Source: Clostridia bacterium (GTDB taxonomy: Bacteria > Bacillota > Clostridia > Oscillospirales > CAG-272). Taken from it: a DNA stretch of 64,000 nt. Below are positions 2,783 to 36,449 of the stretch, piece by piece (the first letter of the stretch is position 1; every line of letters begins with the position of its first letter). The translations under genes were made by a program, and so were the position numbers. A model generated the notes under the pieces. It saw nothing but the letters and a program-made list of their open reading frames with translations, made no database searches and was not told the origin of the DNA. The stretch spans positions 1,174-65,173 of the forward strand of contig JAFTSW010000008.1 in assembly GCA_017467085.1 (NCBI GenBank). The letters are read 5' to 3'.

Positions 2783-3864
2783 TGAAAAAGACAGTTAAGG
2801 TTGGTATTATCGGCTGCGGCGGTATCGGAACCGGCAAGCATATGCCCTCGCTCAAAAAGGTGGAGGGCTGTGAAATGGTTGCCTTCTGCGACATTATTCC
2901 CGAAAGAGCCGAAAAGGCGGCCAAGGAATTCGGCACGCCCGACGCACGCGTTTACACCGATTATAAGGAATTGCTCAAGGAAGATTTGGACGCGGTGCAC
3001 GTTTGCACGCCTAACCGCTCGCATAGCTTTATCACGGTGGACGCGCTGGAGGCAGGCAAGCACGTTATGTGCGAAAAGCCTATGGCCATCAATTCCGCCG
3101 AGGCTAAGAAGATGCTTGACGCGGCAAAAAGAATGGGCAAAATTCTCACCATCGGCTACCAAAGCCGCTTCCGTCCCGATTCGCAGTATATGAAGGCGGA
3201 GGCAGAGGCAGGTACCTTCGGCGAGATTTATTACGCCAAGGCAACCGCGCTTCGCCGCCGCGCCGTTCCTACCTGGGGCGTATTCCTCAACGAATACGAG
3301 CAGGGCGGCGGCCCCCTTATCGATATCGGAACGCACGCGCTTGACCTGACCCTTTGGATGATGAACAACTATGAGCCTCTTTACTGCGTCGGCACGGCCT
3401 ATCATAAGCTCAACAACGATACCGACCAGGGCAATGCCTGGGGCAACTGGGACCCTGAAAAGTTCTCGGTTGAGGATAGTGCCTTCGGCTTTATTGTGAT
3501 GAAGAACGGTGCCACCGTTATTCTGGAATCCTCTTGGGCGCTCAATATTCTTGACCCCCGTGAAGCCATCACCACGGTTTCCGGTACCAAGGCAGGCGCC
3601 GATATGCTGGACGGGCTTCGCATCAACGGCATTCGCAACGGCAGACAGTACGTGATGAAGCCCTCCTTTGAGGCGGGCGGTGTAGCATTCAATGCAGGCC
3701 GCGGAGATGAAAGCCCTGCCGATTGCGAGGAAAGACTCTTTATTGAGGCCGTGCGCGGCGGTGCTGCTCCAATCACCAAGCCTGAGGAGGCCTATTGCGT
3801 CACGCGTATTCTTGAGGGTATTTACGAATCTGCCAAGACGGGCAAGCCCTACTATTTCGATTGA
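2783..3864 (+). CDS. Gfo/Idh/MocA-family NAD(P)-dependent oxidoreductase
   Basis: Start MKKTVKVGIIGCGGIGTGKH (Rossmann GxGxxG) behind AGGAAAGGA. The CEKPMA motif is present. Confidence 0.9.
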
Positions 3865-17856: not shown

Positions 17857-18888
17857 TTAGCGCAAATCGGCAAGGTCTAAAATCAACCGTTCGGTTTTTT
17901 CCCAGCCAAGACAGGGGTCGGTGATGGATTTTCCGTAGATGCATTCGTCGGCCTTCTGGGCGCCGTCCTCTAAGTAGGACTCAATCATCAAGCCCTTTAC
18001 CAAGCGCTTGATATCGTCCGAATGACGGGTCGAGTGGAGAATTTCCTTGGCAATTCTCGGCTGCTCTGCCCATTTCTTTCCCGAGTTGGAGTGATTGGTG
18101 TCCACGATAACCGCAGGGTTGGCAAGCCCACTCTTGGCATACAGCTCAGAAAGGCGTTGCATATCCTCGTAGTGGTAGTTGGCGTAGGTATTGCCCAATC
18201 TGTCCACGTAGCCGCGCAGAATGGCGTGTGCTAGGGGATTGCCCTTGCTCTCCACCTCCCAGCCGGAGTATACGAAGGTGTGGGCGTGCTGGGCGGCGGT
18301 GATGGAGTTCATCATAACCGACAGGTCGCCGCTGGTGGGGTTCTTCATACCGACAGGCATCTGCAGACCGCTGGCAGTCAGACGGTGCAGCTGGTTTTCT
18401 ACCGAGCGGGCGCCTACGGCAACGTAGGAAAGCACGTCACCCAGATACTTGTGGTTTTCAGGGTAGAGCATTTCGTCAGCGCAGGAGAAGCCCGTTCTCG
18501 TCATCGCCTTTACGTGAAGCTTACGGATGGAAATTACGCCCTTCAGCATATTGGGAGAGCTGTTGGGGTCGGGCTGGTGGAACATACCCTTGTAGCCGTC
18601 GCCCGTGGTACGGGGCTTGTTGGTGTAAATGCGGGGGATAATGAGAATCTTATCCTCCACCTTGTCCTGTACCTCGCGCAGACGGTAAATGTATTCCAGA
18701 ACAGAGTCCTCTCTGTCAGCGGAGCAGGGGCCGATAACCAGAATCAGCTTGTCGCTTTTTCCCGTGAAAACATCCTCAATCTCCTTGTCCCTTGCCGCCT
18801 TCTGCTTTTTCATCTCCTCGGTGATGGGGTACATCGCCATAATCTCCTCCACGGAGGGAAGCTGGCGCTTGAAGCTCATGTTTAACAT
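17857..18888 (-). CDS. aroG: 3-deoxy-7-phosphoheptulonate (DAHP) synthase, type I-alpha; isozyme not assignable
   Basis: Motifs LVIGPCS, KPRTT, GARSVENQLHR, ILRG, HSNS and YGKSITDPCLGW align with AroF/G/H. Start MLNM lies behind AAAGGA. Confidence 0.9.
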   Translation of the reverse strand: MLNMSFKRQLPSVEEIMAMYPITEEMKKQKAARDKEIEDVFTGKSDKLILVIGPCSADREDSVLEYIYRLREVQDKVEDKILIIPRIYTNKPRTTGDGYKGMFHQPDPNSSPNMLKGVISIRKLHVKAMTRTGFSCADEMLYPENHKYLGDVLSYVAVGARSVENQLHRLTASGLQMPVGMKNPTSGDLSVMMNSITAAQHAHTFVYSGWEVESKGNPLAHAILRGYVDRLGNTYANYHYEDMQRLSELYAKSGLANPAVIVDTNHSNSGKKWAEQPRIAKEILHSTRHSDDIKRLVKGLMIESYLEDGAQKADECIYGKSITDPCLGWEKTERLILDLADLR

Positions 18889-18922
18889 ATCTTTATCATC
18901 CTTTCGGTTGCTTTTTATCGTT

Positions 18923-19780
18923 TTATTTTTTGTCAAAGAAAATGCGGCGCTGCGTCGAAAGCCGCATCATTTCCCGTAGGGACTCTCTGTCCCCTTCGGC
19001 AACGGCGTTCCGCATTTTCGTGAACTGCGCGGCGAATAAATCCATCTGTGTCAGAAGCTCCTTTTGGTTCAAAAGGAAAAGCTCGCTCCACATCTCATCG
19101 TTGATTTTGGCGATACGGGTCAAATCACGGAAGGAGTCCCCCGTATATCGTGCCAGATGCTCGGCATCCTTGCAGTCCATCAGCGACACGGCAATGCAGT
19201 GGGTCAGCTGGGAAAGAAAGCCAATCATCTCATCGTGCGCCTCGGGAGAGAGGGTAGAGATGGTGGAAAAGCCCAAAATCTCGCCCAGCGCCTTGCAGGT
19301 GGCAATGGCGGCGTCGGTGTTCTTCTCCGTAGGGGTTACGATGTAGTTGGCGTTTTGAAACATAGCGGTGTCGGCGTTTTCAATCCCCGAAACCTCGCGC
19401 CCTGCCATAGGATGGGCGCCGATATATTCCAAATCCTCGCGGAGCATCGCCTGCGCCCTTTGGACCACAGCTCCCTTCACACCGAGAACGTCGGTTAAAA
19501 GGGCACCCTTTTTAATATATGACTGGTTTTCCTCTATCCAGCGCAGAAAGACGGTGGGATAGAGAGCGAATATCAGTAGGTCATACCTGCCGATAAAATC
19601 GCCGTCAATCTCGGTGCGTCCGTCTTGTATATAGCCCTTGGCAAGAGCAAGGTCCACCGCCTCACGGCGAAGGTCAAGACCGCCAACCGTAAAGCCTTGC
19701 TCGGACAGTCCCTTGGCGTAGCTTCCGCCCAAAAGACCCAGTCCGATAATCAGAATTTTCGTATTTCGGTCAAGCATCAT
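18923..19780 (-). CDS. tyrA: prephenate dehydrogenase
   Basis: ILIIGLGLLGGSYAKGL Rossmann motif and HPMAG motif. Its start overlaps the aroA stop. Confidence 0.88.
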   Translation of the reverse strand: MMLDRNTKILIIGLGLLGGSYAKGLSEQGFTVGGLDLRREAVDLALAKGYIQDGRTEIDGDFIGRYDLLIFALYPTVFLRWIEENQSYIKKGALLTDVLGVKGAVVQRAQAMLREDLEYIGAHPMAGREVSGIENADTAMFQNANYIVTPTEKNTDAAIATCKALGEILGFSTISTLSPEAHDEMIGFLSQLTHCIAVSLMDCKDAEHLARYTGDSFRDLTRIAKINDEMWSELFLLNQKELLTQMDLFAAQFTKMRNAVAEGDRESLREMMRLSTQRRIFFDKK

Positions 19781-20972
19781 AGGATACCTCAATTTGTAAT
19801 TTCCGCAATACCGCAAAGAAATCGGGAAAGCTCTTTTTTACCGCCTCGGCACCAAAGATGCTACCGCCAAGCTCGGTTAAAAGCACCGCCATCGCCATTA
19901 CGATACGGTGGTCGTTATGCCCCTCAATGACCTCCTTGGGTGGGTGTAGAGAAGAGGGCAGAACGGTAAAGGTATTTTCCATTCCCTCGGTACGGGCACC
20001 TACCTTTTCAAGCTCCGTCCGCATTGCCTCCACACGGTCGCTCTCCTTAATTTTCAGCCTTGCCGTCCCCGTAAAGTGGGCGCCGTGTCCCCTTGCCGCC
20101 ATAGCGAAAAGCAGGGGCGCCAAATCGGGGCAGTCGGTCAGGTCAATTTCGGGGGAGGGCTCCTCTAAGCGGGCAAGAAGGGTGGGGAAGACCCTATCGC
20201 CCTGCTTGCTGTCGGGCAAAAGCCCCGATAGCGCAACCTCGCCGCCCAAGGCGTTCAAGGCAAGAAGAAAGGCGCCGTTGGACCAGTCACCCTCCACAAC
20301 GCTTTCACGGACAGCGTAGCGCTGTCCACCGGCAATGAAAAAGACGTTTGGCTCTCTTTCCTCAATCACGATACCGAAATCCTTCAGTACGGCAAGCGTA
20401 ATATCAATATAAGAGCGGCTCTCCACGGGAGAGGATACACAAAGCAGGCTGTCGCCCTCCAGTAGCGGTAGAGCGTATAAAAGCCCCGTAATAAATTGGC
20501 TGGAAACGTCCCCCCGAAGGTGGAATTCTCCTGCCGTGAGCTTGCCCTTAACGGTGAGCCTGTCCTCCCCGCGCTCCACCGTAATGCCCTTGGTGGCAAA
20601 CAGCTCCTCGTAAACCGAGATGCCGCGCGCAATCAGACGGGGGGTGCCGAGAAAGGTGGCGCATTCCGTCTGGGACAAGGCAATGGGAATAAAGAAGCGC
20701 AGGGTGCTGCCGCTTTCGTGGCAGGGGAAAATACTGTCCCTCTTGCCGCCTCTGCCCAGAAAGCGGACGGCGTCACCCTCCCTTTCGTATACCGCGCCAA
20801 GGCTCTCGGCGCAGGCAAGGGTGGCGCTCATATCCTCGCTTTGGGAAATACCCTTTACCCGTCCTCCTCCCTCCGCCAAGGCGGTGGCAAGCAGGTAGCG
20901 GTGGGCAAAGCTCTTGGAGGGGGGCGCCGCTACGGCGCCGCGCGCCCTGCTTGGCTGTATGGTTACCGTCAT
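19770..20972 (-). CDS. aroA: 3-phosphoshikimate 1-carboxyvinyltransferase (EPSP synthase)
   Basis: 400 aa, with EPSP synthase pattern across the full length (PPSKSFAHR, KESDR). Confidence 0.93.
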   Translation of the reverse strand: MTVTIQPSRARGAVAAPPSKSFAHRYLLATALAEGGGRVKGISQSEDMSATLACAESLGAVYEREGDAVRFLGRGGKRDSIFPCHESGSTLRFFIPIALSQTECATFLGTPRLIARGISVYEELFATKGITVERGEDRLTVKGKLTAGEFHLRGDVSSQFITGLLYALPLLEGDSLLCVSSPVESRSYIDITLAVLKDFGIVIEEREPNVFFIAGGQRYAVRESVVEGDWSNGAFLLALNALGGEVALSGLLPDSKQGDRVFPTLLARLEEPSPEIDLTDCPDLAPLLFAMAARGHGAHFTGTARLKIKESDRVEAMRTELEKVGARTEGMENTFTVLPSSLHPPKEVIEGHNDHRIVMAMAVLLTELGGSIFGAEAVKKSFPDFFAVLRKLQIEVSYDA

Positions 20973-21087
20973 AGTAATGGCTGTTCCTTTCCTTAGATTG
21001 CGTCGAACTCCAACCTCTTTCTCCGAAAAATTTTCTCTCGTTAAAATTCGCAGAACTCCCGAGCGAGCTCGTACTCTATTCCTGCAA

Positions 21088-21519
21088 TCAGGCGTTGTCT
21101 ATCAGAATATCCATTGCGTGTAAATAGCCCTGTAAGCCCTCGCCAATGACCGAGGCAGTGGCCACCAAGCCGATATAGCTGACCTGGCGGAAGGGCTCCC
21201 GCTCCTTAACGTTGGAGATATGCACCTCCACCGTGGGAATGCCCACCGCCTTGACCGCATCCGCAATGGCGATGCTGGTGTGGGTGTAGGCACCGGGATT
21301 GAAAACGATACCGTCTATCTTGTCAAAATACGCCTTTTGAATGGCGTCTACCAAATCCCCCTCGTGGTTGGATTGGTAAAAGGAAACCGCAACGCCCCGC
21401 TTCTCGGCGTGCAGGCGTATAAGCGCCAAAAGGTCCTCGTAGGTTTCCTTTCCGTATATAGCAGGCTCGCGGATGCCCAAAAAATTCAAGTTGGGTCCGT
21501 TCAGTATCAAAAGCTTCAT
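21088..21519 (-). CDS. aroQ: type II 3-dehydroquinate dehydratase
   Basis: Start MKLLILNGPNLNFLGIREPAIYG; FYQSNHEG and NPGAYTHTS motifs. Confidence 0.95.
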   Translation of the reverse strand: MKLLILNGPNLNFLGIREPAIYGKETYEDLLALIRLHAEKRGVAVSFYQSNHEGDLVDAIQKAYFDKIDGIVFNPGAYTHTSIAIADAVKAVGIPTVEVHISNVKEREPFRQVSYIGLVATASVIGEGLQGYLHAMDILIDNA

Positions 21520-21520
21520 A

Positions 21521-22753
21521 TCAAATCTCCTGTTTGATTTGTTCGGCAAGCGCCGCAATCTCCCCGTCGCCGTCAAGCGTCACGTCCGCCTCTCTTTTGT
21601 AGAGCGGAAGCCTGTACGCATAAAGGGCAGTCAGCCGTTCCTTGTCCGAGGAAAGGGGTCTGTCGGCGGTGGGCAAGAGCTTATCCAGGGAGCGATTTAG
21701 GAAGAAAAGCTTGCCGTTCTGCTTCAAGCGGCGCATATTTTCGTGGTTCAGAACCGCGCCGCCCCCCGTGGCAATCACAACCCCCGACTCGGCGGAAAGG
21801 TCGGCAATGACCCTTGCCTCCTCGATGCGGAAGGCAGGCTCGCCGTAGGTGTTGAGGTATTCGGGAATAGGCATACCCAGCCGCTCGGTCAAAACGGCGT
21901 CAGAGTCTAAAAAGCGCCGTCCCAAAAGCTGTGCCGTTGCTTTTCCCACCGTGCTTTTGCCCGAGGAGGGCATACCGATTAAAACGGCGTTTTCCTTCTC
22001 CGCCAACATAGCGGCGTAAATCTCGTCGATTTGGTCAAGCCGCGGTGGGGTGGAAAAGAAATGGGATGCGGCGTATACCGCCTGGGCAACCAGCATATAA
22101 AGACCGCCAACCGCGGGAATACCGCCTGCCTCTGCCTGTTGCACCAGAGCAGTACGCAGAGGATGGTAAATGGCGTCCGCCACCCCCGAAAGCTGTGGGA
22201 AGCGGGAAATATCAATGGGAAGCGCCTCGGGAGAGGGGAACATACCGACAGGGGTGGTGTTGACTATCACCTGGGCGTCCGTATGAAGGGAAAGCGCCTC
22301 CTCGTAGGTCAAAATCCCCTCCTGCTTCCTTCTGGAAACACGAAAGACCGCCTTCGCCCCCTCTGCCTTTGCCACAGCAAGGGCGGTTGCGGAGGTGCCG
22401 CCCGTGCCGAGAATCAAAACCTTCTTCCCCGAAAGGGAAATGCCCCCCACCGCAAGCAAACGGGACAGCCCGTAAAAATCGGTGTTGTAGCCGTAAAGGC
22501 GCCCTTCTCGGTTGACAACGGTGTTCACAGCGCCGATGGCGCGCGCCGCCTCGTCAATCTCGTCTAAATAGGGAATAACGTCCTTCTTGTAGGGAATGGT
22601 CACGTTGATGGCGCAAAAATCCCGCTCGGTCATAAATGCGTCAAGACCGTCCCTGGGGATTTCCCGAAGCTCGTAAGGGTAGTCCCCGATTTTGCGGTGA
22701 ATTTCGCAGGAATAGCTATGGGAGAGATGCTCTCCGATTAAGCCGTATTTCAT
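21521..22753 (-). CDS. aroE/aroK: fused shikimate dehydrogenase / shikimate kinase
   Basis: The N-terminal AroE part has YGLIG...NVTIPYK...GTGG. The C-terminal kinase part has the P-loop LIGMPSSGKSTVGK. ATGA overlap with the aroC stop. Confidence 0.9.
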   Translation of the reverse strand: MKYGLIGEHLSHSYSCEIHRKIGDYPYELREIPRDGLDAFMTERDFCAINVTIPYKKDVIPYLDEIDEAARAIGAVNTVVNREGRLYGYNTDFYGLSRLLAVGGISLSGKKVLILGTGGTSATALAVAKAEGAKAVFRVSRRKQEGILTYEEALSLHTDAQVIVNTTPVGMFPSPEALPIDISRFPQLSGVADAIYHPLRTALVQQAEAGGIPAVGGLYMLVAQAVYAASHFFSTPPRLDQIDEIYAAMLAEKENAVLIGMPSSGKSTVGKATAQLLGRRFLDSDAVLTERLGMPIPEYLNTYGEPAFRIEEARVIADLSAESGVVIATGGGAVLNHENMRRLKQNGKLFFLNRSLDKLLPTADRPLSSDKERLTALYAYRLPLYKREADVTLDGDGEIAALAEQIKQEI

Positions 22754-23850
22754 GACTTGGGAATTCCTTTCAAAAGCACGTCCGTGCCGTAGCGCGCGGT
22801 GAGCATATCGCAAAGCACGAAAGCCGTCACGCTGTCAATCACAGGGCAAATGCGGCGGATAATGGCAGGGTCGTGGCGCCCCTCTATGGAAAGCTCCACC
22901 TCCTGCATTTCTATAAAGTCTACCGTTCTCTGGGTCTTGGCAATAGAGGGGGTGGGCTTCACCGCACAGGAGAAGAGAAGAGGCATACCGTTTGTAATGC
23001 CGCCGTTGACGCCGCCGTTTTTGTTGGTTTCGGTGACAACGCATCCGTCCTTGATGCGGAAGGGGTCGTTGGCCTCGCTGCCGCGAAGGGAGGCAAAGCC
23101 GAAGCCCTCGCCAAAGGCAATGCCCTTGATGCCGCCAATGCTGAATAAGGCGTGAGAAAGCAGACTCTCCACGCTGTCAAACCAGGGCTCCCCAAGACCT
23201 GCGGGAAGACCGCAAACGGCGCTTTCCGTCCTGCCGCCAATGCTGTCGCAGTCGGCTCTTGCCGCTAAAATCTCCTTGGAAATCGCCTCGGCGGCGTGGG
23301 GGTCAAGGGTGGGGAAGGTGCTTTCCTCTAAGGCGTCAATGTCTGCCCGTATATCCCCGAAGGGACGGTCAAGGGCATCGCCGCAGGCGGCAATATGGGT
23401 GCCAAGGGTGATGCCCAAGCGCCCAAGGGCGGGTATCAGAATACCGCCAACGGCAACCAGGGCAGCCGTAATTCTTCCCGAAAAGTGACCGCCGCCCCGA
23501 TAGTCCTCGAAGCCGTGGTACTTGGCGTAGGCGGCGTAATCCGCGTGGGAGGGACGGGCATTGCCGTAGCGGTAGTCGCCGCTTTTGGTGTTTTCGTTGG
23601 GAATGAGAATACAAAGGGGTGAGCCCGTGGTTTTTCCGTTAAAGACACCGCTGACAATCTGGAAATTGTCCTTTTCTCTTCTGGGGGTGTCAAGGGCGGA
23701 TCTGGGACGCCTTTTGCTTAAAAGTCTTTCTATTTCCGCCTCGTCTACGGGAATGCCGGGGGCAATCCCGTCCAAAACGGCGCCAATATGGGAGCCGTGG
23801 CTTTCCCCGAACAGGGTCAGGGAAAGGGAGGTGCCAATCGTGTTTTTCAT
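22750..23850 (-). CDS. aroC: chorismate synthase
   Basis: GESHG near the N-terminus, RPSHADY and GGGHFSGR motifs. Confidence 0.95.
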   Translation of the reverse strand: MKNTIGTSLSLTLFGESHGSHIGAVLDGIAPGIPVDEAEIERLLSKRRPRSALDTPRREKDNFQIVSGVFNGKTTGSPLCILIPNENTKSGDYRYGNARPSHADYAAYAKYHGFEDYRGGGHFSGRITAALVAVGGILIPALGRLGITLGTHIAACGDALDRPFGDIRADIDALEESTFPTLDPHAAEAISKEILAARADCDSIGGRTESAVCGLPAGLGEPWFDSVESLLSHALFSIGGIKGIAFGEGFGFASLRGSEANDPFRIKDGCVVTETNKNGGVNGGITNGMPLLFSCAVKPTPSIAKTQRTVDFIEMQEVELSIEGRHDPAIIRRICPVIDSVTAFVLCDMLTARYGTDVLLKGIPKS

Positions 23851-23887
23851 CGTGTTCTCCGTTCTGCGCCCGCAAGTGCTTTGGGCG

Positions 23888-24874
23888 TTATTTTATAGAA
23901 AGCAGCGCCTCGGGGCTCACCGTCTTAAAGACGAAGGAGCCAAGCTCCTCCGCAAAAACGGCAATCACACCCGCCTTGTCCATTTTCTTGTCCCGTACCA
24001 GGTATGGCAACAGCGCCTCGGGTGAGGCGTCCGTCTTGACGGGAAGCGCATACTTTTCGAGAAGAGGGATAAGCCGTCTGAGAACCGCAGGGGATGCGGC
24101 GTAGGTCATACCGAGCGCCACGCATTCGCCGTGAAGCAGCGCGCCGTTTGCGTAGGCCTCAATGGCGTGTCCCACGGTGTGCCCGAAGTTCAGGGCGCGG
24201 CGCAGTCCCGCCTCCTTGAAGTCCTCCTCCACAACCGCCTTCTTGATGCGAAGGGATTGCTCGATAATGACGGGCAGGTCATCCTCTAAGCTCTCGCTTT
24301 TTTCGATGAGGGAGAAAAGGCTCTCGTCGAAGGTTGTCGCCATCTTAATAGCCTCGGCAAGCCCTGCGTGAAGCTGGCGCTTGTCCAAGGTTTTCAGGGT
24401 GTCGGGGTCAATCAGAACCCGACGGGGCTTGTAAAAGGCGCCTACAATGTTCTTGACCCCCTCAAAATCAATGGCGGTCTTGCCCCCGATAGAGGAATCC
24501 ACCTGGGAAAGCAGGGTGGTGGGAATGTTGTAAAAATCAATACCGCGCATATAGCAGGCGGCGGCAAAGCCGCTTAAATCGCCTACAACGCCGCCACCCA
24601 CCGCCACCACACAGTCGCGGCGCGTAAAGGCAGAAGCCACCATCTCGCGGAGTAAAAGGGCAAAGCTGTCTAAATTCTTGCTTGCCTCTCCTTGAGGCAG
24701 CACCACGGTGTGCGCCTCCCGACAGGCGGCGGCAACTGCTTCGGCATAAGCGGCAGGAACGCCGCTGTCCGTTACCACAAGCACGCGCCTGTCCAAATCC
24801 AGGTATTCACCCACCTTGGCAAGAGCGCCTTTTTCCAGAATGATATCGTATTCACCCGAAACGGATAAAATCAT
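23888..24874 (-). CDS. aroB: 3-dehydroquinate synthase
   Basis: GGGVVGDLSGFAAA and NFGHTVGHAIE motifs. Confidence 0.9.
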   Translation of the reverse strand: MILSVSGEYDIILEKGALAKVGEYLDLDRRVLVVTDSGVPAAYAEAVAAACREAHTVVLPQGEASKNLDSFALLLREMVASAFTRRDCVVAVGGGVVGDLSGFAAACYMRGIDFYNIPTTLLSQVDSSIGGKTAIDFEGVKNIVGAFYKPRRVLIDPDTLKTLDKRQLHAGLAEAIKMATTFDESLFSLIEKSESLEDDLPVIIEQSLRIKKAVVEEDFKEAGLRRALNFGHTVGHAIEAYANGALLHGECVALGMTYAASPAVLRRLIPLLEKYALPVKTDASPEALLPYLVRDKKMDKAGVIAVFAEELGSFVFKTVSPEALLSIK

Positions 24875-24892
24875 ATCCTGTTCCTACCTTCT

Positions 24893-25993
24893 TTATTTAA
24901 TGGTTTCTACGTAATAGCTGCCAACCAGCTTCAGCTTAGCGCAAATTGCCGACAGCTCGCAAAGCATATCCTCGCCGTTTTCGGTGTGGATGTTGCCCTC
25001 GGCCTCAATGTAGAAGTAGTAGCTCCATTCCAAATCCTTCATAGGACGGCTGCGCAGGTTACGCATATTGAAGCCGTGGGCACCCACGATGTTCAAGGCG
25101 TTAGCAAGGGAGCCTGCCTTGTTCTGTACGGTGAATACCAGAATGAAGTTCTCGCTTTCCTTTCTGTCGGTGGGGGCGGGGATGTTTCTCTCCTTGGAGA
25201 AGGAGGCAAAGCGCGTCACGTTGATTTTGCTGTCGTTGATGGCGCTCTCCAAAATCTGCAAGCCGAAAATAGAGGCGGTTTCCTCCGAGGCAATGGCGGC
25301 AATGGTGGGGTCGCCGGCGTTCTTCACGTATTCGGCAGCCAGCGCGGTGTTGGAGAAAACTTTGGTTTCTAAGCCGTGGGCGCGAATGTAGTCGGCGCAT
25401 TGGTCAAGCGCCTGGGGATGGCTCAATACCGTCTTGACGGTGTCCTTGGTGGCACCGGGGCAGGCAATCAGATGATGCACAATGGGCACGTCAATGACCT
25501 GGTTGATATGCAAATCTCCCGAGAAAATCAAATCCATTACCGTGCCAACCTCGCCTGCGTAGCTGTTCTCCAAGGGAAGAACGGCGCAGTCATAGGAGCC
25601 CTTTTCTACTGCCGCGTAGGCGTCCGCGAAATCGGCAAAGGCGGAAAGCTCAGCGGCAGGGAAGAGACGCTTGGCGGCAATGTGGGCGTAGGCACCCAGG
25701 GTTCCCGAATAGGTCACGCGCATACCCGTCATCAGCTTGTCCTGGTAGTCGCAGGAAATATCAATCACGTTCCGCAAAAAGCGGGCGTAGTAGGGCTCAA
25801 TGGCGGTAGAGGAAATATAGCTGCAATTCTTTTCAATCAGCGCCCTTTCTCTTGCCTCGTCCTTGACGGAAAGCCCGTTTGCCTTCTTGTGAGCGGCAAT
25901 CCTTTCAGCCGCCGCCATCCGTCTTTCAAACAGAAGCGCCATTTCCTTATCAATTTCGTTGATTTCTTTTCTTGCTTGCTCTAAATCGTTCAT
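24893..25993 (-). CDS. pheA: bifunctional chorismate mutase / prephenate dehydratase (P-protein type, with ACT domain)
   Basis: Start MNDLEQARKEINEIDKEMALLFERRM (chorismate mutase helix), a PDT core (ENSYAGEV, TRF) and a C-terminal ACT-like region. Confidence 0.9.
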   Translation of the reverse strand: MNDLEQARKEINEIDKEMALLFERRMAAAERIAAHKKANGLSVKDEARERALIEKNCSYISSTAIEPYYARFLRNVIDISCDYQDKLMTGMRVTYSGTLGAYAHIAAKRLFPAAELSAFADFADAYAAVEKGSYDCAVLPLENSYAGEVGTVMDLIFSGDLHINQVIDVPIVHHLIACPGATKDTVKTVLSHPQALDQCADYIRAHGLETKVFSNTALAAEYVKNAGDPTIAAIASEETASIFGLQILESAINDSKINVTRFASFSKERNIPAPTDRKESENFILVFTVQNKAGSLANALNIVGAHGFNMRNLRSRPMKDLEWSYYFYIEAEGNIHTENGEDMLCELSAICAKLKLVGSYYVETIK

Positions 25994-26040
25994 TTTTATA
26001 TGCTCCGTTTCTTGCCTGTGGCAAAACAAATAATAAACCA

Positions 26041-26075
26041 AAAAAGAAGGAGCCCTTCCGTTCGGGAAGAGCTCC
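26041..26075 (-). terminator. leader terminator T2 upstream of pheA
   Basis: The minus strand reads GGAGCTCTTCC-cgaac-GGAAGGGCTCC followed by TTCTTTTT, about 50 nt before the pheA start. Confidence 0.7.
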
Positions 26076-26090
26076 GCTTGCGGTCATACA

Positions 26091-26255
26091 TTACCGCATA
26101 AAAGCCTTACATCCTTCACGGAAAAAATGCTTGCAGGTAAAATAATAAAAAAAGCAGTACGCAAAAAATCGTACTGCAAAATAGCAAAAAGAGCCCTCGG
26201 CAGAGGACATAAGGGAGGTATGACAAGACGTGGGCGCGGCTGCACAACGCATCAT
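26091..26255 (-). CDS. candidate 54-codon leader peptide rich in Phe/Tyr
   Basis: AAGGAGG lies 8 nt upstream of ATGATG. Translation: MMRCAAAPTSCHTSLMSSAEGSFCYFAVRFFAYCFFYYFTCKHFFREGCKAFMR (10 Phe, 4 Tyr). It spans terminator T1 and stops 15 nt before T2. Confidence 0.4.
   Translation of the reverse strand: MMRCAAAPTSCHTSLMSSAEGSFCYFAVRFFAYCFFYYFTCKHFFREGCKAFMR
26147..26177 (-). terminator. leader terminator T1 inside the candidate leader ORF
   Basis: The minus strand reads GCAGTACG-attttttg-CGTACTGC followed by T7. Confidence 0.65.
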
Positions 26256-26283
26256 TTTTCATTCCTCCTTGATTTTTTGAATT

Positions 26284-26312
26284 ATTATACACCCTGAAAG
26301 AGGGTTTGTCAA
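26284..26312 (-). promoter_or_regulatory. sigma-A promoter of the aromatic supraoperon
   Basis: The minus strand reads TTGACA, 17 nt spacer, TATAAT. Confidence 0.65.
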
Positions 26313-26405: not shown

Positions 26406-26434
26406 TTGACAAACCGCCGCGAGTGTGCTAAAAT
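26406..26434 (+). promoter_or_regulatory. sigma-A promoter of T-box leader 1
   Basis: TTGACA, 17 nt spacer, TGcTAAAAT. Confidence 0.65.
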
Positions 26435-26439
26435 CGTAC

Positions 26440-26698
26440 CAAATTTGAAAAGGCAATGACGAAGACGGGCTTCTTGGATAGCGGCAAAGAGAAACGGCGG
26501 TTGGTGCGAGCCGTAGCGCAGAGAGAAAGACCCTATCACTTCCGAGCCGGGAGCCTGAACGCAGTAGGGCTTCACGAGAGGCACAGCGTGAGTGTGCAGA
26601 GGTTGCTTGACCTCGTAAAGTGGCGTCTTATGGCGCAATTTGAGTGGTACCGCGAGTGTTTTCACCCGCCTCAAAGAATTTTCTTTGGGGCGGTTTTT
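26440..26698 (+). promoter_or_regulatory. T-box leader 1 (candidate specifier AUC, Ile)
   Basis: Stem I has an ATGA/GA kink-turn, an AGAGA bulge and the distal loop GTTGGTGCGAGCC. The T-box sequence AATTTGAGTGGTACCGCG lies at 26637..26654. The terminator is ccgcctcaaag/ctttggggcgg plus T5. ATC-A sits directly 5' of the lower-stem strand CTTC (26535..26538). Confidence 0.85.
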
Positions 26699-26732: not shown

Positions 26733-29000
26733 ATGAATACAAACAACACGCAAAGTCGGTTATCGGAGATTGCAACCCGTATTAAGGAGCTGCGCGAGAT
26801 TATGGGCTTTTCCGTTGCGGAAATGACCGGGAAAACCGATGTGGACGAGGCTACCTATCTTTCTTATGAAAGCGGTACGGTGGACATTCCCTTCTCCTTT
26901 ATTCATAAGTGCGCGCTGGCATTCGGCGTTGAAATGACCGAGCTTTTGGAGGGCAGCACGGCAAAGCTCTCCACCTATACGGTCACAAGAAAGGGCAGAG
27001 GACAGGGAACCGCCAAGGAGGACGGCATCGATATTGCCAACCTGGCGCCCAAGTTCAAGGATAAGCTGGCAGAGCCCTACTACGTTACCTACGAGTATTC
27101 CCAGGCGCAGCAGAACAAGCCCATTCATCTGACCACCCACAGCGGCCAGGAATTTGACTTGGTGCTGAGCGGTAAGCTGAAAATCCAGGTCGGTGAGCAT
27201 ACCGAATTTCTGGAGGAGGGGGACAGCATCTATTACAATTCCTCCATTCCGCACGGTATGATTGCCGTAGACGGCAAGGACTGCACCTTCGTTGCGGTGG
27301 TTATGTCGGGCGACAACTCCAATGAAACGGTTGTCAGAAAGAGCGTTATCGCCGCCAAGAAGAGCGAGGCGCTGGTTTGCGAAAAATTCCTTGACGTAAA
27401 GGAAAACGCAAACGGGGAATTGGAGAGCATCCGCTTCAAGAATACCGAAAGCTTCAACTTTGGCTTCGACATCGTGGACGGCATTGCAGACAGCTATCCC
27501 GAAAAGCTGGCTATGCTTCATCTTGACAGAAACAAGAACGAGCGCCGCTTCACCTTCAAGGATATCAAGAAGGCGTCCAACCAGGTGGCAAACTATTTCA
27601 CCTCCCTTGGCATCAAGCGGGGCGATAAGGTTATGCTGGTGTTAAAGCGCCATTACCAGTTCTGGTTCTGTATGGTTGCGCTGCATAAGCTGGGCGCTAT
27701 CGCCATCCCCGCAACCAACCAGCTGAAGGAGCACGATTTTGAGTATCGCTACAATTCCGCAGGGGTTAAGGCAATCGTCTGCACCGCTGACGGTGATACC
27801 TATACCTATGCCCAAAGCGCCGCCAAAAAGTGTCCCCAGGTGGAAAAGCTTCTGATGGTCGGCGGTGTCAGAGAGGGCTGGCTTGATTTTGATAAGGAAT
27901 ATAAGCTCTTCTCCAGCAAGTTCGAGCGTCCCGCCGACTGCTCCGCGGGAGATGACCTTGCTCTGATGTTCTTCACCTCGGGTACCACGGGTAACCCCAA
28001 AATGGCAGCCCATAAGCATACCTACGCCCTGGGTCACTACGTGACGGCAAAATATTGGCACTGCTGTGAGCGTGATGGCTTGCATCTGACCATTTCCGAT
28101 ACGGGCTGGGGCAAATCCCTCTGGGGCAAGCTCTACGGCCAATGGCTCTGCGAGGGAGCGGTGTTCGTCTATGACTTCGATAAGTTTGACGAGAACGATT
28201 TGCTTCCTATGTTTGCCGAGTACAATATCACCACCTTCTGCGCGCCGCCCACGATGCTCAGAATGCTCATCCGCGGCGACCTTTCCAAGTTCGATTTGTC
28301 CTCTATCCACCATATGACCACCGCAGGCGAGGCGTTGAACCCCGAGGTGTTCAACCAGTTCAAAACGGCAACGGGTCTTGAAATTATGGAGGGCTTCGGG
28401 CAGACGGAAACCACCCTTGCTATTGCGAACCTTTACGGTATGACGCCCAAAATCGGCGCGATGGGTAAGGCAAATCCCCAGTATGACGTGGACGTGGTAG
28501 ACGCCGACGGCAAATCTCTTCCCGCGGGTGAAATCGGCGAAATCGTCATTCACACGGACAAGGAGGTTCCTTGCGGTCTGTTCAAGGAATACTACCGCGA
28601 CAGTGAAAAAACGGTGGACGCCTGGCACGACGGCCTGTATCACACGGGCGACACCGCTTGGCGGGATGAGGACGGCTACTTCTGGTACGTTGGGCGTGTG
28701 GATGACGTTATCAAGTCCTCGGGCTACCGCATCGGGCCCTTTGAAATCGAAAGCGTCATTATGGAGCTGCCGTACGTGTTGGAATGCGGCGTTTCCGCTG
28801 CTCCCGACCCCGTCAGAGGGCAGGTGGTCAAGGCAAGCGTTGTTCTCGTGAAGGGAACCGAGCCCACCGATGCGCTGAAAAAGGAAATCCAGAATTACGT
28901 CAAGGAGCATACCGCCCCCTACAAGTATCCCCGTATCGTGGTGTTCCGCGACTCTCTTCCCAAAACCATCAGCGGCAAGATTCAGAGAAACAAGCTTTAA
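26733..29000 (+). CDS. fusion protein: XRE-type HTH + cupin (PuuR-like) + medium-chain (ACSM/MACS-like) AMP-forming acyl-CoA synthetase
   Basis: ATG lies behind TAAGGAGG. aa 1-70 carry the HTH (RIKELREIMGFSVAEM...). aa ~110-200 carry the cupin (HSGQEFDLVLSGKLKIQVG...GDSIYYNSSIPHG). The remainder is the ligase, with FFTSGTTGNPK, GFGQTETT, YHTGD, SSGYRIGPFEIE and PKTISGKIQR. Confidence 0.85.
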   Translation: MNTNNTQSRLSEIATRIKELREIMGFSVAEMTGKTDVDEATYLSYESGTVDIPFSFIHKCALAFGVEMTELLEGSTAKLSTYTVTRKGRGQGTAKEDGIDIANLAPKFKDKLAEPYYVTYEYSQAQQNKPIHLTTHSGQEFDLVLSGKLKIQVGEHTEFLEEGDSIYYNSSIPHGMIAVDGKDCTFVAVVMSGDNSNETVVRKSVIAAKKSEALVCEKFLDVKENANGELESIRFKNTESFNFGFDIVDGIADSYPEKLAMLHLDRNKNERRFTFKDIKKASNQVANYFTSLGIKRGDKVMLVLKRHYQFWFCMVALHKLGAIAIPATNQLKEHDFEYRYNSAGVKAIVCTADGDTYTYAQSAAKKCPQVEKLLMVGGVREGWLDFDKEYKLFSSKFERPADCSAGDDLALMFFTSGTTGNPKMAAHKHTYALGHYVTAKYWHCCERDGLHLTISDTGWGKSLWGKLYGQWLCEGAVFVYDFDKFDENDLLPMFAEYNITTFCAPPTMLRMLIRGDLSKFDLSSIHHMTTAGEALNPEVFNQFKTATGLEIMEGFGQTETTLAIANLYGMTPKIGAMGKANPQYDVDVVDADGKSLPAGEIGEIVIHTDKEVPCGLFKEYYRDSEKTVDAWHDGLYHTGDTAWRDEDGYFWYVGRVDDVIKSSGYRIGPFEIESVIMELPYVLECGVSAAPDPVRGQVVKASVVLVKGTEPTDALKKEIQNYVKEHTAPYKYPRIVVFRDSLPKTISGKIQRNKL

Positions 29001-29144: not shown

Positions 29145-29417
29145 TAAAGCTATAAAGGCGTTGACGAAGAGTGCAGGTATGTGGCTTTTTCAGAGAAGCG
29201 GCGGTTGGTGCGAGCCGTTAAAATGCTATCCCCTGTTTGTAGCTTCCGAGCCGAGAGGAAGAAAGAGTATCGAGTAGAACCTCTCCGCGTTTGCTGCGTA
29301 AGTGCATACGGGTTGATTGACCCTGAGGGGCGGCTTTTGCCGCAATTTGAGTGGTACCGCGGGTTTTGATGTAACAAGCTCGTCTCAAAGTATTTATCTT
29401 TGTGGCGGGCTTTTTTT
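29145..29417 (+). promoter_or_regulatory. T-box leader 2 (candidate specifier GUA, Val)
   Basis: Same architecture as leader 1: TTGA/GA kink-turn, AGAGA, GTTGGTGCGAGCC. T-box AATTTGAGTGGTACCGCG lies at 29344..29361. The terminator is gctcgtctcaaag/ctttgtggcgggc plus T7. GTA-G precedes the lower-stem strand CTTC (29239..29242). Confidence 0.8.
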
Positions 29418-29443
29418 GTCGCCATAACAATCTTGGAGGAAAT

Positions 29444-31729
29444 ATGCAAGGAATTACGGGACTGGATTTGAAAATAAAGGAAATGGCAAACCGTATCCGT
29501 GAGCTTCGTGAAATCGAGGGCTTGACGGTGGTGGAGATGGCTGCCAAAACGGGTGTGTCCGAGGCAGAATATCTTGCCTGTGAAAACGGCGAGTCCGATT
29601 TGAACTTTGCCTTTATCTATCGCTGTGCCTCCGCCTTCAACGTGGACGTAACAGATATTATCGAGGGTAAAAGCCCCACGCTGAAGTCCTATACCTTAAC
29701 GAGAAGCGGACAGGGTCAGCGCATCGAAGAGGCGCACGGAATGACCTATTTCAACCTAGCATCCGCCTTCCGTAACCGTATCGCCGAGCCCCTGTACGTT
29801 TGCAGCCGTTATAGCGAAAAGGCGCAAACGGGGGACATTGAGCTGACTACCCACGATGGGCAGGAGTGCGATATCGTTCTCAGCGGTCACCTGAAAATTC
29901 AGATTGGCTCTCATATTGAGGTTCTCGGCCCCGGTGACAGCATTTATTACGATAGCTCCACACCTCACGGTATGATTGCCGTGGAGGGTGAGGACTGTCG
30001 CTTCTACGCCATTGTGCTGAATCCCACGGGCGAGCCCATTCCCGAGCTGCAGCCCTCCAAGGCGGTCCAGAGCCGTCCTGCCAAGCGTGACGATAAGGAA
30101 AGAGTCTATTCTGCCTTCGTAGACACCGAGGAGGACGAAAACGGTACCCCCACCTCTATTACCTTCAAAAACACCGACACCTTTAACTTTGCCTACGATG
30201 TAGTAGACAAAATTGCCGAGAAGGAGCCGAGAAAGCTTGCCCTCTTGCACGTGGCAAGCGATAAGACGGAAACCAGGCTTTCCTTCTCCGATATCAAGAA
30301 AAATTCCTGCCGCGCCGCCAACTACTTTAAGTCCCTCGGCATCAAGAAGGGGGACCGCGTGATGCTGGTGCTGGGCAGACACTACCAGTTCTGGTACGCC
30401 ATTCTTGGGCTTCACCGCCTGGGCGCTATCGCCATTCCTGCCATGAACCAGCTGCTGGACCACGACTTAGAATACCGCTTCAAGGCGGCAGGCGTGTCCG
30501 CTATCCTCTGTACGGGGAAGGGCGGCGTTTCCACCGAGGTGGATAAGGCAGAGGCGCAGCTTGGCAGAAGCCTTATCAAGATTATGGTAGGCGGCAAAAA
30601 GGAGGGCTGGCGCAGCTTTGACGAGGAATGCGCCTTATACAGCACCCACTTTGACCGTACCGCCGATACCCCCTGTGGCAACGATACGCTTCTGATGTTC
30701 TTCACCTCCGGCACCACGGGCTATCCCAAAATCGCCGTACATAACCATAAGTACCCCCTGGGTCACTTCCACACCGCCAAGTATTGGCACAACGTGGACT
30801 CGGACGGCTTGCACTTCACCATCTCGGATACGGGCTGGGCAAAGGCGCTCTGGGGCAAGCTCTACGGTCAATGGCTCTGCGAGGCGGCAACCTTTGTGTA
30901 CGATTTCGAGCGCTTCCACGCGGACGATATCCTTCCTATGTTCGCCAAGTACCAGATTACCACCTTCTGCGCACCGCCCACGATGCTCCGTATGATGGTC
31001 AAGGAGGACATCTCCAAGTACGACCTCTCCTCCGTCAAGCATATGACCACGGCAGGCGAAGCGCTGAACCCCGAGGTTTACCGCCAATTCGAGGAAGCCA
31101 CGGGCTTGCAGATTCTGGAGGGCTTCGGTCAGTCCGAAAGCACTATGATTATCGGAAACCTGCGGGGCGCGCCTCATAAGATTGGCTCTATGGGCAAGCC
31201 TGCCCCCATTTACGACGTGGAGCTGCTCTCCGCTGACGGCAAGCAGGTTCCCGTGGGTGAATCGGGTGAAATCGTTGTCAAGATTGCAAACGGCTCTCCC
31301 TGCGGACTCTTCGACGGCTATTACCAGGACGAGGAAAAGACCCGCGAGGTCAAGCACGATGGCTACTACCATACGGGCGACGTCGCCTGGCGTGACGAGG
31401 ACGGCTTCTATTGGTACGTCGGTCGTGTGGATGACGTTATCAAGTCCTCGGGCTACCGCATCGGGCCCTTTGAAATCGAAAGCGTTATTATGGAGCTGCC
31501 GTACGTCTTGGAATGCGGCGTTTCCGCCGCACCCGACCCCGTCAGAGGTCAGGTGGTAAAGGCGAGCATCGTGCTGGTGCCGGGCACCGTTGCCTCGGAC
31601 GCCCTCGTCAAGGAAATCCAGGACTACGTCAAGACCCATACCGCACCCTACAAGTATCCCAGAATTATCGTTTTCCGTGACGCGCTTCCCAAAACCGCCA
31701 GCGGAAAAATCCAAAGAAATCTGCTGTAA
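29444..31729 (+). CDS. paralogous fusion protein: XRE-type HTH + cupin + ACSM/MACS-like acyl-CoA synthetase
   Basis: ATG lies behind GGAGGA. Same three-domain layout as 26733..29000. The N-terminal ~250 aa are strongly diverged from the paralog, while the C-terminal ligase subdomain is nearly identical. Confidence 0.85.
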   Translation: MQGITGLDLKIKEMANRIRELREIEGLTVVEMAAKTGVSEAEYLACENGESDLNFAFIYRCASAFNVDVTDIIEGKSPTLKSYTLTRSGQGQRIEEAHGMTYFNLASAFRNRIAEPLYVCSRYSEKAQTGDIELTTHDGQECDIVLSGHLKIQIGSHIEVLGPGDSIYYDSSTPHGMIAVEGEDCRFYAIVLNPTGEPIPELQPSKAVQSRPAKRDDKERVYSAFVDTEEDENGTPTSITFKNTDTFNFAYDVVDKIAEKEPRKLALLHVASDKTETRLSFSDIKKNSCRAANYFKSLGIKKGDRVMLVLGRHYQFWYAILGLHRLGAIAIPAMNQLLDHDLEYRFKAAGVSAILCTGKGGVSTEVDKAEAQLGRSLIKIMVGGKKEGWRSFDEECALYSTHFDRTADTPCGNDTLLMFFTSGTTGYPKIAVHNHKYPLGHFHTAKYWHNVDSDGLHFTISDTGWAKALWGKLYGQWLCEAATFVYDFERFHADDILPMFAKYQITTFCAPPTMLRMMVKEDISKYDLSSVKHMTTAGEALNPEVYRQFEEATGLQILEGFGQSESTMIIGNLRGAPHKIGSMGKPAPIYDVELLSADGKQVPVGESGEIVVKIANGSPCGLFDGYYQDEEKTREVKHDGYYHTGDVAWRDEDGFYWYVGRVDDVIKSSGYRIGPFEIESVIMELPYVLECGVSAAPDPVRGQVVKASIVLVPGTVASDALVKEIQDYVKTHTAPYKYPRIIVFRDALPKTASGKIQRNLL

Positions 31730-36184: not shown

Positions 36185-36449
36185 CAAATTTCAAATGCGA
36201 TGAAGGAATTATTTCTTTTCCTCATTTTACTGCAGAGAGTCGGCGGTTGGTGCAAGCCGATGTAAAGGGTTAAGAAAGTCTCATTCCGGAGCAGAATTTC
36301 CGAACCGAAAGTAAGAAATTCCGTATGCCTCGTTATCGGCTAATGGCTTGTTAGAGCCTGAGAGTGACCGTTTTTTAACGGTAATCAGGGTGGTACCGCG
36401 AAAAGTATTTTTCGTCCCTGAAGCGATTGCTTCAGGGGCGTTTTGTTTT
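36185..36449 (+). promoter_or_regulatory. T-box leader 3 (candidate specifier CUC, Leu)
   Basis: GATGA/GA kink-turn, AGAGAG, distal loop GTTGGTGCAAGCC. T-box AATCAGGGTGGTACCGCG lies at 36383..36400. The terminator is cgtccctgaagc/gcttcaggggcg plus TTTTGTTTT. CTC-A precedes the lower-stem strand TTCC (36280..36283). Confidence 0.85.

Follow-up and report, generated by a model that had tools for sequence, protein, structure and literature searches.

Bacillota are generally held to sense amino acids by T-boxes, riboswitches and RNA-binding proteins; in Firmicutes, aromatic and aminoacyl-tRNA control usually relies on T-boxes. Attenuation by leader peptides is seen as proteobacterial, the usual reason being that the polymerase of Bacillota outruns the ribosomes. 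In the enterobacterial pheL-pheA system, a short translated leader with Phe codons, a terminator ahead of pheA and an alternative antiterminator pairing make the position of the ribosome the signal. Leaders that read several amino acids are known, as in thr and ilv, and in E. coli pyrBI a terminator inside a 44-codon leader open reading frame (ORF) is suppressed by a closely following ribosome, the system sensing UTP via polymerase pausing and not aminoacyl-tRNA. Here, we analyzed a 64,000-nucleotide (nt) stretch of DNA from an uncultured gut Clostridia bacterium (the window), in which a leader ORF rich in Phe and Tyr codons lies on the minus strand ahead of pheA and an operon for chorismate, Phe and Tyr synthesis. 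Comparison with related leaders suggests that the operon is controlled here by ribosome-mediated transcription attenuation, with charged tRNA-Phe and tRNA-Tyr sensed jointly, a reading to which we assign a probability of roughly 0.8.

Catalogued pheL leaders come from gamma-proteobacteria, and Bacteroides and Desulfobacterium add only a few possible cases (PMC3082878). For Firmicutes aminoacyl-tRNA synthetase genes, an older comparative paper reported T-boxes and not classical attenuation (PMC1262725). Runaway transcription and NusG-dependent pausing at TTNTTT are documented in B. subtilis (PMC9226507), and the Bacillota as a phylum have been assigned to the runaway type (PMC13323073). Ribosome-dependent attenuation of transcription has precedents within the Bacillota: the predicted His leader-peptide attenuators of the Bacillus cereus group, Peptostreptococcaceae and Erysipelotrichales, which were presented as new in 2022 (PMC9413887), and vmlR of B. 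subtilis, in which an upstream ORF (uORF) attenuator joins NusG-dependent pausing to uORF stalling (PMC9226507).

The leader in the window resembles pheL-pheA in its translated Phe codons, its terminator ahead of pheA (termed T2 here) and its alternative antiterminator pairing. However, the two have no sequence or structure homology: membership of the Rfam family Phe_leader (RF01859) was rejected at a noise-level score of 16.9 bits (E = 4.4) against a gathering score of 55. The ORF in the window is also longer (54 codons versus about 15), Phe and Tyr codons are mixed in it, eight genes of shikimate, Phe and Tyr synthesis follow it instead of pheA alone, a terminator-like hairpin within the ORF (T1) and a stop-codon-bearing middle hairpin (M) are added, and the host is a Clostridia metagenome-assembled genome (MAG). 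As in the E. coli trp and his leaders, an early hairpin able to pause polymerase would precede a terminator/antiterminator choice made by stalling at cognate codons. Unlike in those leaders, the early hairpin lies upstream of and around the regulatory codons and not after them, it looks terminator-like because a full U7 tract is present, and the 1:2 anti-antiterminator is weak or absent (-4.2 kcal/mol in the window). T1 is placed like the terminator of pyrBI, within a translated leader ORF where read-through plausibly needs a close ribosome, but the window has a second terminator past the ORF and its codon bias points to sensing of Phe and Tyr tRNA. The His leaders and vmlR, with His codons and antibiotics as their respective signals, belong to other genes and have other sequences, and neither has an in-ORF terminator-like hairpin bearing regulatory codons. 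Finally, the terminator/antiterminator decision would report tRNA charging as in T-box leaders (RF00230), but the only T-box-like leader nearby is 130 nt away on the opposite strand and serves a divergent gene.

An initial annotation of this DNA, made from its letters and ORFs, had proposed a TTGACA-17-TATAAT promoter, an AAGGAGG 8 nt ahead of ATGATG, a 54-codon ORF holding 14 aromatic codons (10 Phe, 4 Tyr; all but one in codons 23-45), terminator T1 inside this codon cluster, terminator T2 15 nt past the ORF stop and an eight-gene operon, and we recovered all of these at the positions given in Table 1. The leader peptide reads MMRCAAAPTSCHTSLMSSAEGSFCYFAVRFFAYCFFYYFTCKHFFREGCKAFMR, and the whole leader folds with z = -3.9 relative to dinucleotide shuffles. 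When the window was searched for further leader peptides containing runs of amino acids, no convincing one turned up. A hairpin sequestering the Shine-Dalgarno (SD) sequence, seen in the minimum-energy fold of the window, was considered and is not claimed, as by inspection it was not clearly conserved in a relative (L001).

By Pfam domains, the operon reads pheA (CM-PDT-ACT), aroB, aroC, an aroE-aroK fusion, aroQ, aroA, tyrA and DAHP synthase, starting from the pheA ATG at 25993 on the minus strand. A mixed Phe and Tyr sensor fits this operon because pheA, tyrA and the common pathway are all encoded there. A HAD hydrolase gene lies 3' of the DAHP synthase gene and is followed by a strong terminator at 16565-16541, ahead of which our minus-strand scan found no strong terminator downstream of pheA. 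The fusion joins the N-terminal domain of shikimate dehydrogenase to shikimate kinase in a single 430-aa ORF (21521-22813, minus strand), whose 3' end is overlapped by aroQ, coding for a class II dehydroquinase (21576-21088).

Table 1 Features of the pheA leader in the window and leader peptides of other subfamilies (L numbers denote loci of relatives).
Feature	Position or locus	Strand	Details
Sigma-70-type promoter, TTGACA-17-TATAAT	26284..26312	-	Consensus matched at 12/12 positions
Shine-Dalgarno sequence, AAGGAGG	26264..26270	-	8 nt to leader ATGATG; read directly
Leader ORF	26091..26255	-	54 codons + stop; 10 Phe and 4 Tyr codons
Regulatory codon cluster, FCYFAVRFFAYCFFYYFTCKHFF	26121..26189	-	Codons 23-45; 13/14 Phe/Tyr codons
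H0 hairpin, GUCCUC-UGCC-GAGGGC then UCUUUUUGC	26193..26208	-	Terminator scan; -7.6 kcal/mol
T1 in-ORF hairpin, GCAGUACG-AUUUUUUG-CGUACUGC, tail U7AUUAUUUU	Hairpin 26177-26154, tail 26153-26139	-	Terminator scan
Candidate antiterminator 5' strand, core UUCCGUGAAGGA	26101..26123	-	Codons 45-48; complementary to T2 5' arm + loop (ACGGAA, UCC/UCUUC)
Middle hairpin M, GCGG-UAAUGUAUGA-CCGC	26080..26097	-	-8.7 kcal/mol; leader stop codon UAA in loop
T2 terminator, GGAGCUCUUCC-CGAAC-GGAAGGGCUCC + UUCUUUUUUG	26039..26075 with tail; hairpin 26075-26049	-	Terminator scan; 11 bp
Putative controlled operon, eight genes	17857..25993	-	Pfam assignments
Other-subfamily leader	L062		MMFARDYFYFYFGSNSLRKGS
Other-subfamily leader	L004		...NGYFYFYFRNFCPRKGR
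Other-subfamily leader	L005		...GGYYYYFSTKID
Other-subfamily leader	L017, L036, L043, L067, L069		...NNCFYFTFARFYAGFYC...
Other-subfamily leader	L054, L055, L058		...FRFFYYYYFMNN...
Other-subfamily leader	L047		NNYFYYFYF

We then compared the leader with those of related loci. A genome scan with PheA returned 80 loci, to which homologous proteins and their contigs added more, whereas a scan of metagenome contigs with PheA yielded no relative above 63% identity and no additional leader. The leader set consisted of the window and eleven further leaders (L001, L002, L106, L110, L112 and L114-L119), all from uncultured Clostridia/Eubacteriales gut MAGs or metagenomes, with PheA proteins 64-86% identical to that of the window. 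In 11 of the 12, a TTGACA-17-TAxAAT promoter precedes the leader ATG by 21-37 nt, L117 having a TTGACA/TATGAT variant instead, and an SD sequence (GGAGG or GAGG) and ATG were kept in all. The ORFs span 47-58 codons and carry 7-15 Phe/Tyr codons each. The initial annotation had allowed for a frame that is lost in relatives while the hairpins are kept; the opposite was found, with the same frame (frame 0) open from an SD-preceded ATG in 12/12 leaders, while the other two frames contained 20 and 18 stop codons over the same spans. Insertions and deletions between the leaders preserve this frame.

The composition of the aromatic codons is also informative. Summed over the 12 leaders there are 80 TTT, 33 TAT, 21 TAC and 7 TTC codons, and T-runs cannot be the source of the 54 Tyr codons among them. 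The loop of T1 alternates between UUUUUU (Phe-Phe) and UUUUAU (Phe-Tyr), and the tail that follows T1 in L115, GUUUAUUAUUAUUUU, is a poor terminator U-tract, yet reads VYYYF. These three observations argue for selection on the codons and not on the U-run alone; the comparison thus shows, at the level of sequence, that selection acts on the frame of the ORF as well as on its Phe/Tyr codons. Conservation is centered on a peptide core, AVRF(F/Y)(S/A)YC(F/V)(F/Y)Y, followed by further Phe/Tyr codons, and the N-terminal 20-30 codons are free in sequence and constant in length. Within this otherwise variable part, four leaders (L110, L114, L115 and L116) keep the motif SVSESVR (UCCGUGUCUGAGUCUGUCCGCA), perhaps because of RNA structure, the peptide itself or a recent shared ancestor. 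A homologous 53-aa ORF was annotated by the gene caller in L106 and L107. In L110/L111 (1501-1557, protein P0006), the start annotated for the 385-aa PheA is misplaced by about 57 nt in the upstream direction, and the coding region called from it reads across the attenuator terminator; translation probably begins instead at the ATG of a product of about 366 aa.

We take T2, a terminator predicted from sequence, to be the regulated attenuator. Its arms (GGAGCTCTTCC/GGAAGGGCTCC) are followed by a T-run, it folds with -18.9 kcal/mol, and it begins 15 nt past the leader stop codon and ends 55 nt ahead of the pheA ATG. Every relative has a strong hairpin with a U-run 31-60 nt ahead of pheA (-14 to -22 kcal/mol), and the sequences of these hairpins differ. 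The initial annotation had suggested looking for conserved alternative pairings upstream of pheA, and such potential pairings were present throughout: in each of the 12 leaders, part of the final third of the ORF is able to pair with that leader's T2, at its 5' arm and loop (-12 to -22.5 kcal/mol; -14.5 kcal/mol in the window). Cognate pairs of strand and T2 were on average 4.3 kcal/mol more stable than non-cognate pairs and the better ones in 11/11 comparisons (Wilcoxon p ~0.001, for leaders that are related to one another). For the four leaders that could be aligned reliably (the window, L001, L002 and L106), 97% of antiterminator cells were standard pairs, compared to 42-69% in slid controls, and one pair is compensatory, with two sequences having C-G and two having U-A. 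At the level of sequence, these comparisons show that T2 and its complementary upstream strand have co-evolved.

The geometry around the leader stop codon was compared as well. In 9/12 leaders, 0-12 nt separate the end of the antiterminator strand from the stop codon; alternatively, the stop codon falls within M. A hairpin of differing sequence is found between the antiterminator strand and T2 in 12/12 leaders (mean z = -2.1), and seven of them, including the window, have their stop codon inside or at the edge of it. In the remaining five the stop codon is 5' of M, and in four of these (L106 and L114-L116) it abuts the antiterminator strand.

Based on this organization, we propose the following mechanism. 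A ribosome would load at AAGGAGG/ATG on the transcript from the consensus promoter. When Phe-tRNA or Tyr-tRNA is scarce, it would stall in codons 23-39 and leave the ORF-distal UUCCGUGAAGGA strand free. That strand would then engage T2 at its 5' arm and loop, enclosing M; with T2 blocked, the polymerase would enter pheA. When both amino acids are plentiful, the ribosome would reach the end of the ORF, cover the antiterminator strand and enter M, T2 would form and transcription would stop. T1, as a hairpin/TTNTTT pause or weak terminator, would hold or abort polymerases that lack a close ribosome, so that only translated transcripts reach the T2 decision, a synchronizing and fail-safe step. The checkpoint would matter because the antiterminator tends to form by default without a ribosome. 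We infer this division of labour between T1 and T2; that T1 acts as a pause or weak terminator checkpoint on ribosome-less polymerase is a serious possibility, at somewhat less than even odds. The idea of the initial annotation that translation through the Phe/Tyr codons decides terminator formation gains support from the comparative genomics.

T1 itself, with arms GCAGTACG/CGTACTGC and a T7 tail, folds with -11.5 kcal/mol. It starts at ORF nt 73-88 and at codon position 1 in all 12 leaders, and thus at a near-fixed distance from the ATG; in the window it occupies ORF nt 79-102, with the U-run at 103-117. The element is itself coding: its loop contains Phe codons, its 3' arm a Tyr codon, and its tail reads FFYYF. 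A TTNTTT motif lies no more than 10 nt past T1 in 12/12 leaders. The terminator scan of the minus strand also revealed a third, weaker hairpin with a T-run, H0, that the initial annotation had not reported and that is a possible, weakly supported pause element. A hairpin at this position is clear in some relatives only. Conservation of H0 by co-variation was downgraded as a candidate, with mostly weak z-scores when the 45 nt upstream of T1 were folded in the 12 leaders, and a long-range pairing of its 3' arm (GAGGGCUC) with the T2 5' arm was dropped, not being conserved in L001 and L002 by inspection.

Several observations weigh against the attenuator reading or parts of it. The 12 leaders are not phylogenetically independent. 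Their single-sequence antiterminator z-scores are modest (-0.2 to -3.9), and in the window the antiterminator core ends 18 nt short of the stop codon, where a terminating ribosome would cover only the 3' part of the antiterminator plus M. We also folded truncated transcripts at equilibrium with 30-nt ribosome masks placed at the Phe/Tyr cluster or the stop codon, and this gave no consistent switch: the 5' arm of T2 was paired upstream with a probability of 0.3-0.8 in most states, including the state with no ribosome. The T2 decision is kinetic, and this equilibrium folding is not counted as support. As for T1, the TTNTTT motif that follows it is nearly automatic within a run of Phe codons, and its stem shows no co-variation in the clade of the window, while T2, M and the N-terminal codons have diverged. 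The stem (GCAGUACG/CGUACUGC) is invariant in the 12 leaders except for one GUA to GUG change that keeps a G.U pair, and hairpin function plus Phe/Tyr codons alone do not explain this. Such invariance at a PheA identity of only 64-70% suggests an extra sequence-specific constraint, be it a protein, the nascent peptide or coding and pairing combined. The double constraint of pairing and coding may suffice; the AVRF(F/Y)(S/A)YC/GCAGUACG element might additionally serve as a nascent-peptide signal or be recognized by some factor.

The invariance of T1 is the starting point of the rival explanation that survives best, in which the T1 palindrome (GCAGTACG-N8-CGTACTGC) is the main regulator, a site for a Phe/Tyr-responsive protein (an RNA-binding attenuation protein or a DNA roadblock repressor), with the ORF having a minor role or none. 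A stem kept so strictly amid diverged surroundings is typical of sequence-specific recognition. However, the stem is also coding (AVR...YC), a double constraint that can slow co-variation, and other subfamilies have an in-ORF hairpin of wholly different sequence at the equivalent place. Moreover, no candidate regulator gene is conserved beside the leader, the upstream neighbours varying among loci, and the conserved SD sequence, ATG, open frame and Tyr codons would be left unexplained. Repeats of the TRAP type are absent as well: none of the 12 leaders has a run of at least three (G/U)AG repeats, and TRAP needs nine to eleven, spaced 2-3 nt. We consider a protein site, whether as the main regulator or as an added layer, unlikely.

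A second rival explanation is that the leader is non-coding and structured, such as an unknown riboswitch or small RNA, and that its U-runs create the Phe/Tyr codons incidentally, with no regulatory translation. A T-run does read as TTT codons in one frame out of three, frame 2 shares the richness in Phe/Tyr and is open in 5/12 leaders, and the structure of the leader is strong by the z-score given above. Yet frame 0 alone is open in all 12 leaders and always preceded by SD and ATG, indels keep it, and the many TAT/TAC codons are not accounted for. Runs of Phe/Tyr also occur without U-tracts, as in L115, or in short-ORF subfamilies that lack T1 (L062, MMFARDYFYFYFGSNSLRKGS), and N-terminal codons that vary in sequence at constant length are ill-suited to an aptamer. 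Known RNA classes do not help either. An Rfam scan of the pheA strand gave no family at gathering score and none credible at E<=10, and a T-box (RF00230) on the minus strand was matched neither at gathering score nor at E<=10, in line with the initial annotation, which had found no T-box core on this strand. We regard the non-coding explanation as very improbable.

Least likely of all is that the ORF encodes a functional small hydrophobic protein and that neither hairpin has to do with amino acid sensing, both being ordinary terminators or pause sites. In favour of this are the 47-58 codons, long for a leader peptide, the conserved core motif AVRF(F/Y)(S/A)YC and the fact that a gene was called at the ORF in two assemblies. 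Against it, a search of the 54-aa peptide against 5.8 billion proteins returned a single marginal homologue and no Pfam domain, the Phe/Tyr core alone is conserved with the remainder free to vary, the ORF is always immediately upstream of pheA and its 3' end always overlaps the terminator-complementary strand.

Leaders of the same kind as the proposed attenuator were found beyond the close relatives. Upstream of PheA relatives from other Clostridia MAG lineages are leader ORFs unrelated in sequence to that of the window that have the same signature of Phe/Tyr runs, including YFYFYF, YYYYF and FRFFYYYYF (Table 1). Each has its own terminator and a complementary box beside the stop codon. In L004 and L062, the box CCGCAAAGGA lies just 5' of the stop codon and in L005 the related GCAAAGGG lies 3' of it, both complementary to UCCUUUGCGG in the terminator loop and arm. 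In L017 and its relatives, CUCGAA...AACAG directly 3' of the stop codon is complementary to CUGUUUUCGGG of the terminator. Two further subfamilies have an in-ORF hairpin with a U-rich tail directly before or around the aromatic codons, formed by different stems (UUCGCGCGC-UUUUAU-GCGGG and GACACUU...AAGUGUC + U7); the T1 architecture therefore recurs, in three subfamilies.

We tested for enrichment of such ORFs in the 400 nt upstream of 78 loci, counting ORFs with Phe/Tyr in a stretch of eight residues and using the antisense strand and dinucleotide shuffles as controls. At least five Phe/Tyr of eight were found at 17/78 loci in the sense direction, compared to 2 in antisense and 2.75 in shuffles; with at least six of eight the counts were 9, 0 and 0.4, respectively.

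The YFYFYF subfamily has a second conserved block, TGTGGATTTATAATCA..TTGATTATAATGGA, between the attenuator terminator and pheA (L005 ~560-648, L062 ~2920-3000, L003 ~230-314). It has an inverted repeat and -10-like hexamers and may be an internal promoter or operator. The contigs of L004, L005 and L062 are labelled Bacteroidaceae, Phascolarctobacterium succinatutens and Bacteroides sp., respectively; they have the same kind of leader and PheA proteins 63-65% identical to that of the window. Errors of binning or labelling are the probable cause, the alternative being horizontal transfer.

Other regulatory elements lie close to the pheA leader. Divergent from the pheA promoter, on the plus strand, is the T-box-like leader (26447-26693; match 26447-26676, 82.2 bits, E = 1.7e-18), which the default Rfam scan missed because its score is below the gathering score of 93. 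It contains AGUGGUACCGCG and has its own promoter (TTGACA-17-TAAAAT, 26406-26434) and terminator (26666-26693), and from the alignment its specifier looks like AUC (Ile). Two tandem paralogous plus-strand genes (26734-29000 and 29402-31729) encode proteins of ~760-775 aa with an unusual HTH (HTH_3/HTH_19) - cupin - AMP-binding enzyme organization, and the T-box-like leader immediately precedes the first of them. An acyl-adenylate-forming enzyme that is fused to a DNA-binding domain would be an odd target for T-box control. A canonical T-box leader (127 bits) is present further along the plus strand, at 36191-36422.

The class of mechanism proposed for the pheA leader is textbook; what sets this case apart is the host phylum, the dual Phe/Tyr codons, the long ORF and the embedded terminator-like hairpin. 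In the full-text literature we found no description of a Phe/Tyr leader peptide for pheA/aro genes in Firmicutes, the widest survey of classical attenuators lying outside the texts covered, and priority is uncertain. The complete proposal, namely an undescribed and widespread family of dual Phe/Tyr attenuators in gut Clostridia, an in-ORF T1 translation checkpoint with regulatory codons in its loop, 3' arm and U-tract, and a checkpoint that makes ribosome-mediated attenuation workable under runaway transcription, is tentative, and we hold it to be a little less probable than the checkpoint role of T1 by itself. If it is true, gut Clostridia use ribosome-sensed attenuation to govern an entire aromatic supraoperon, and one sensor reads both end products. 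A hairpin placed among the regulatory codons would then offer a testable hypothesis for how transcription and translation are synchronized without obligatory coupling. In practical terms, such leaders would allow better regulon annotation for uncultured gut organisms and provide a compact sensor part for two amino acids.

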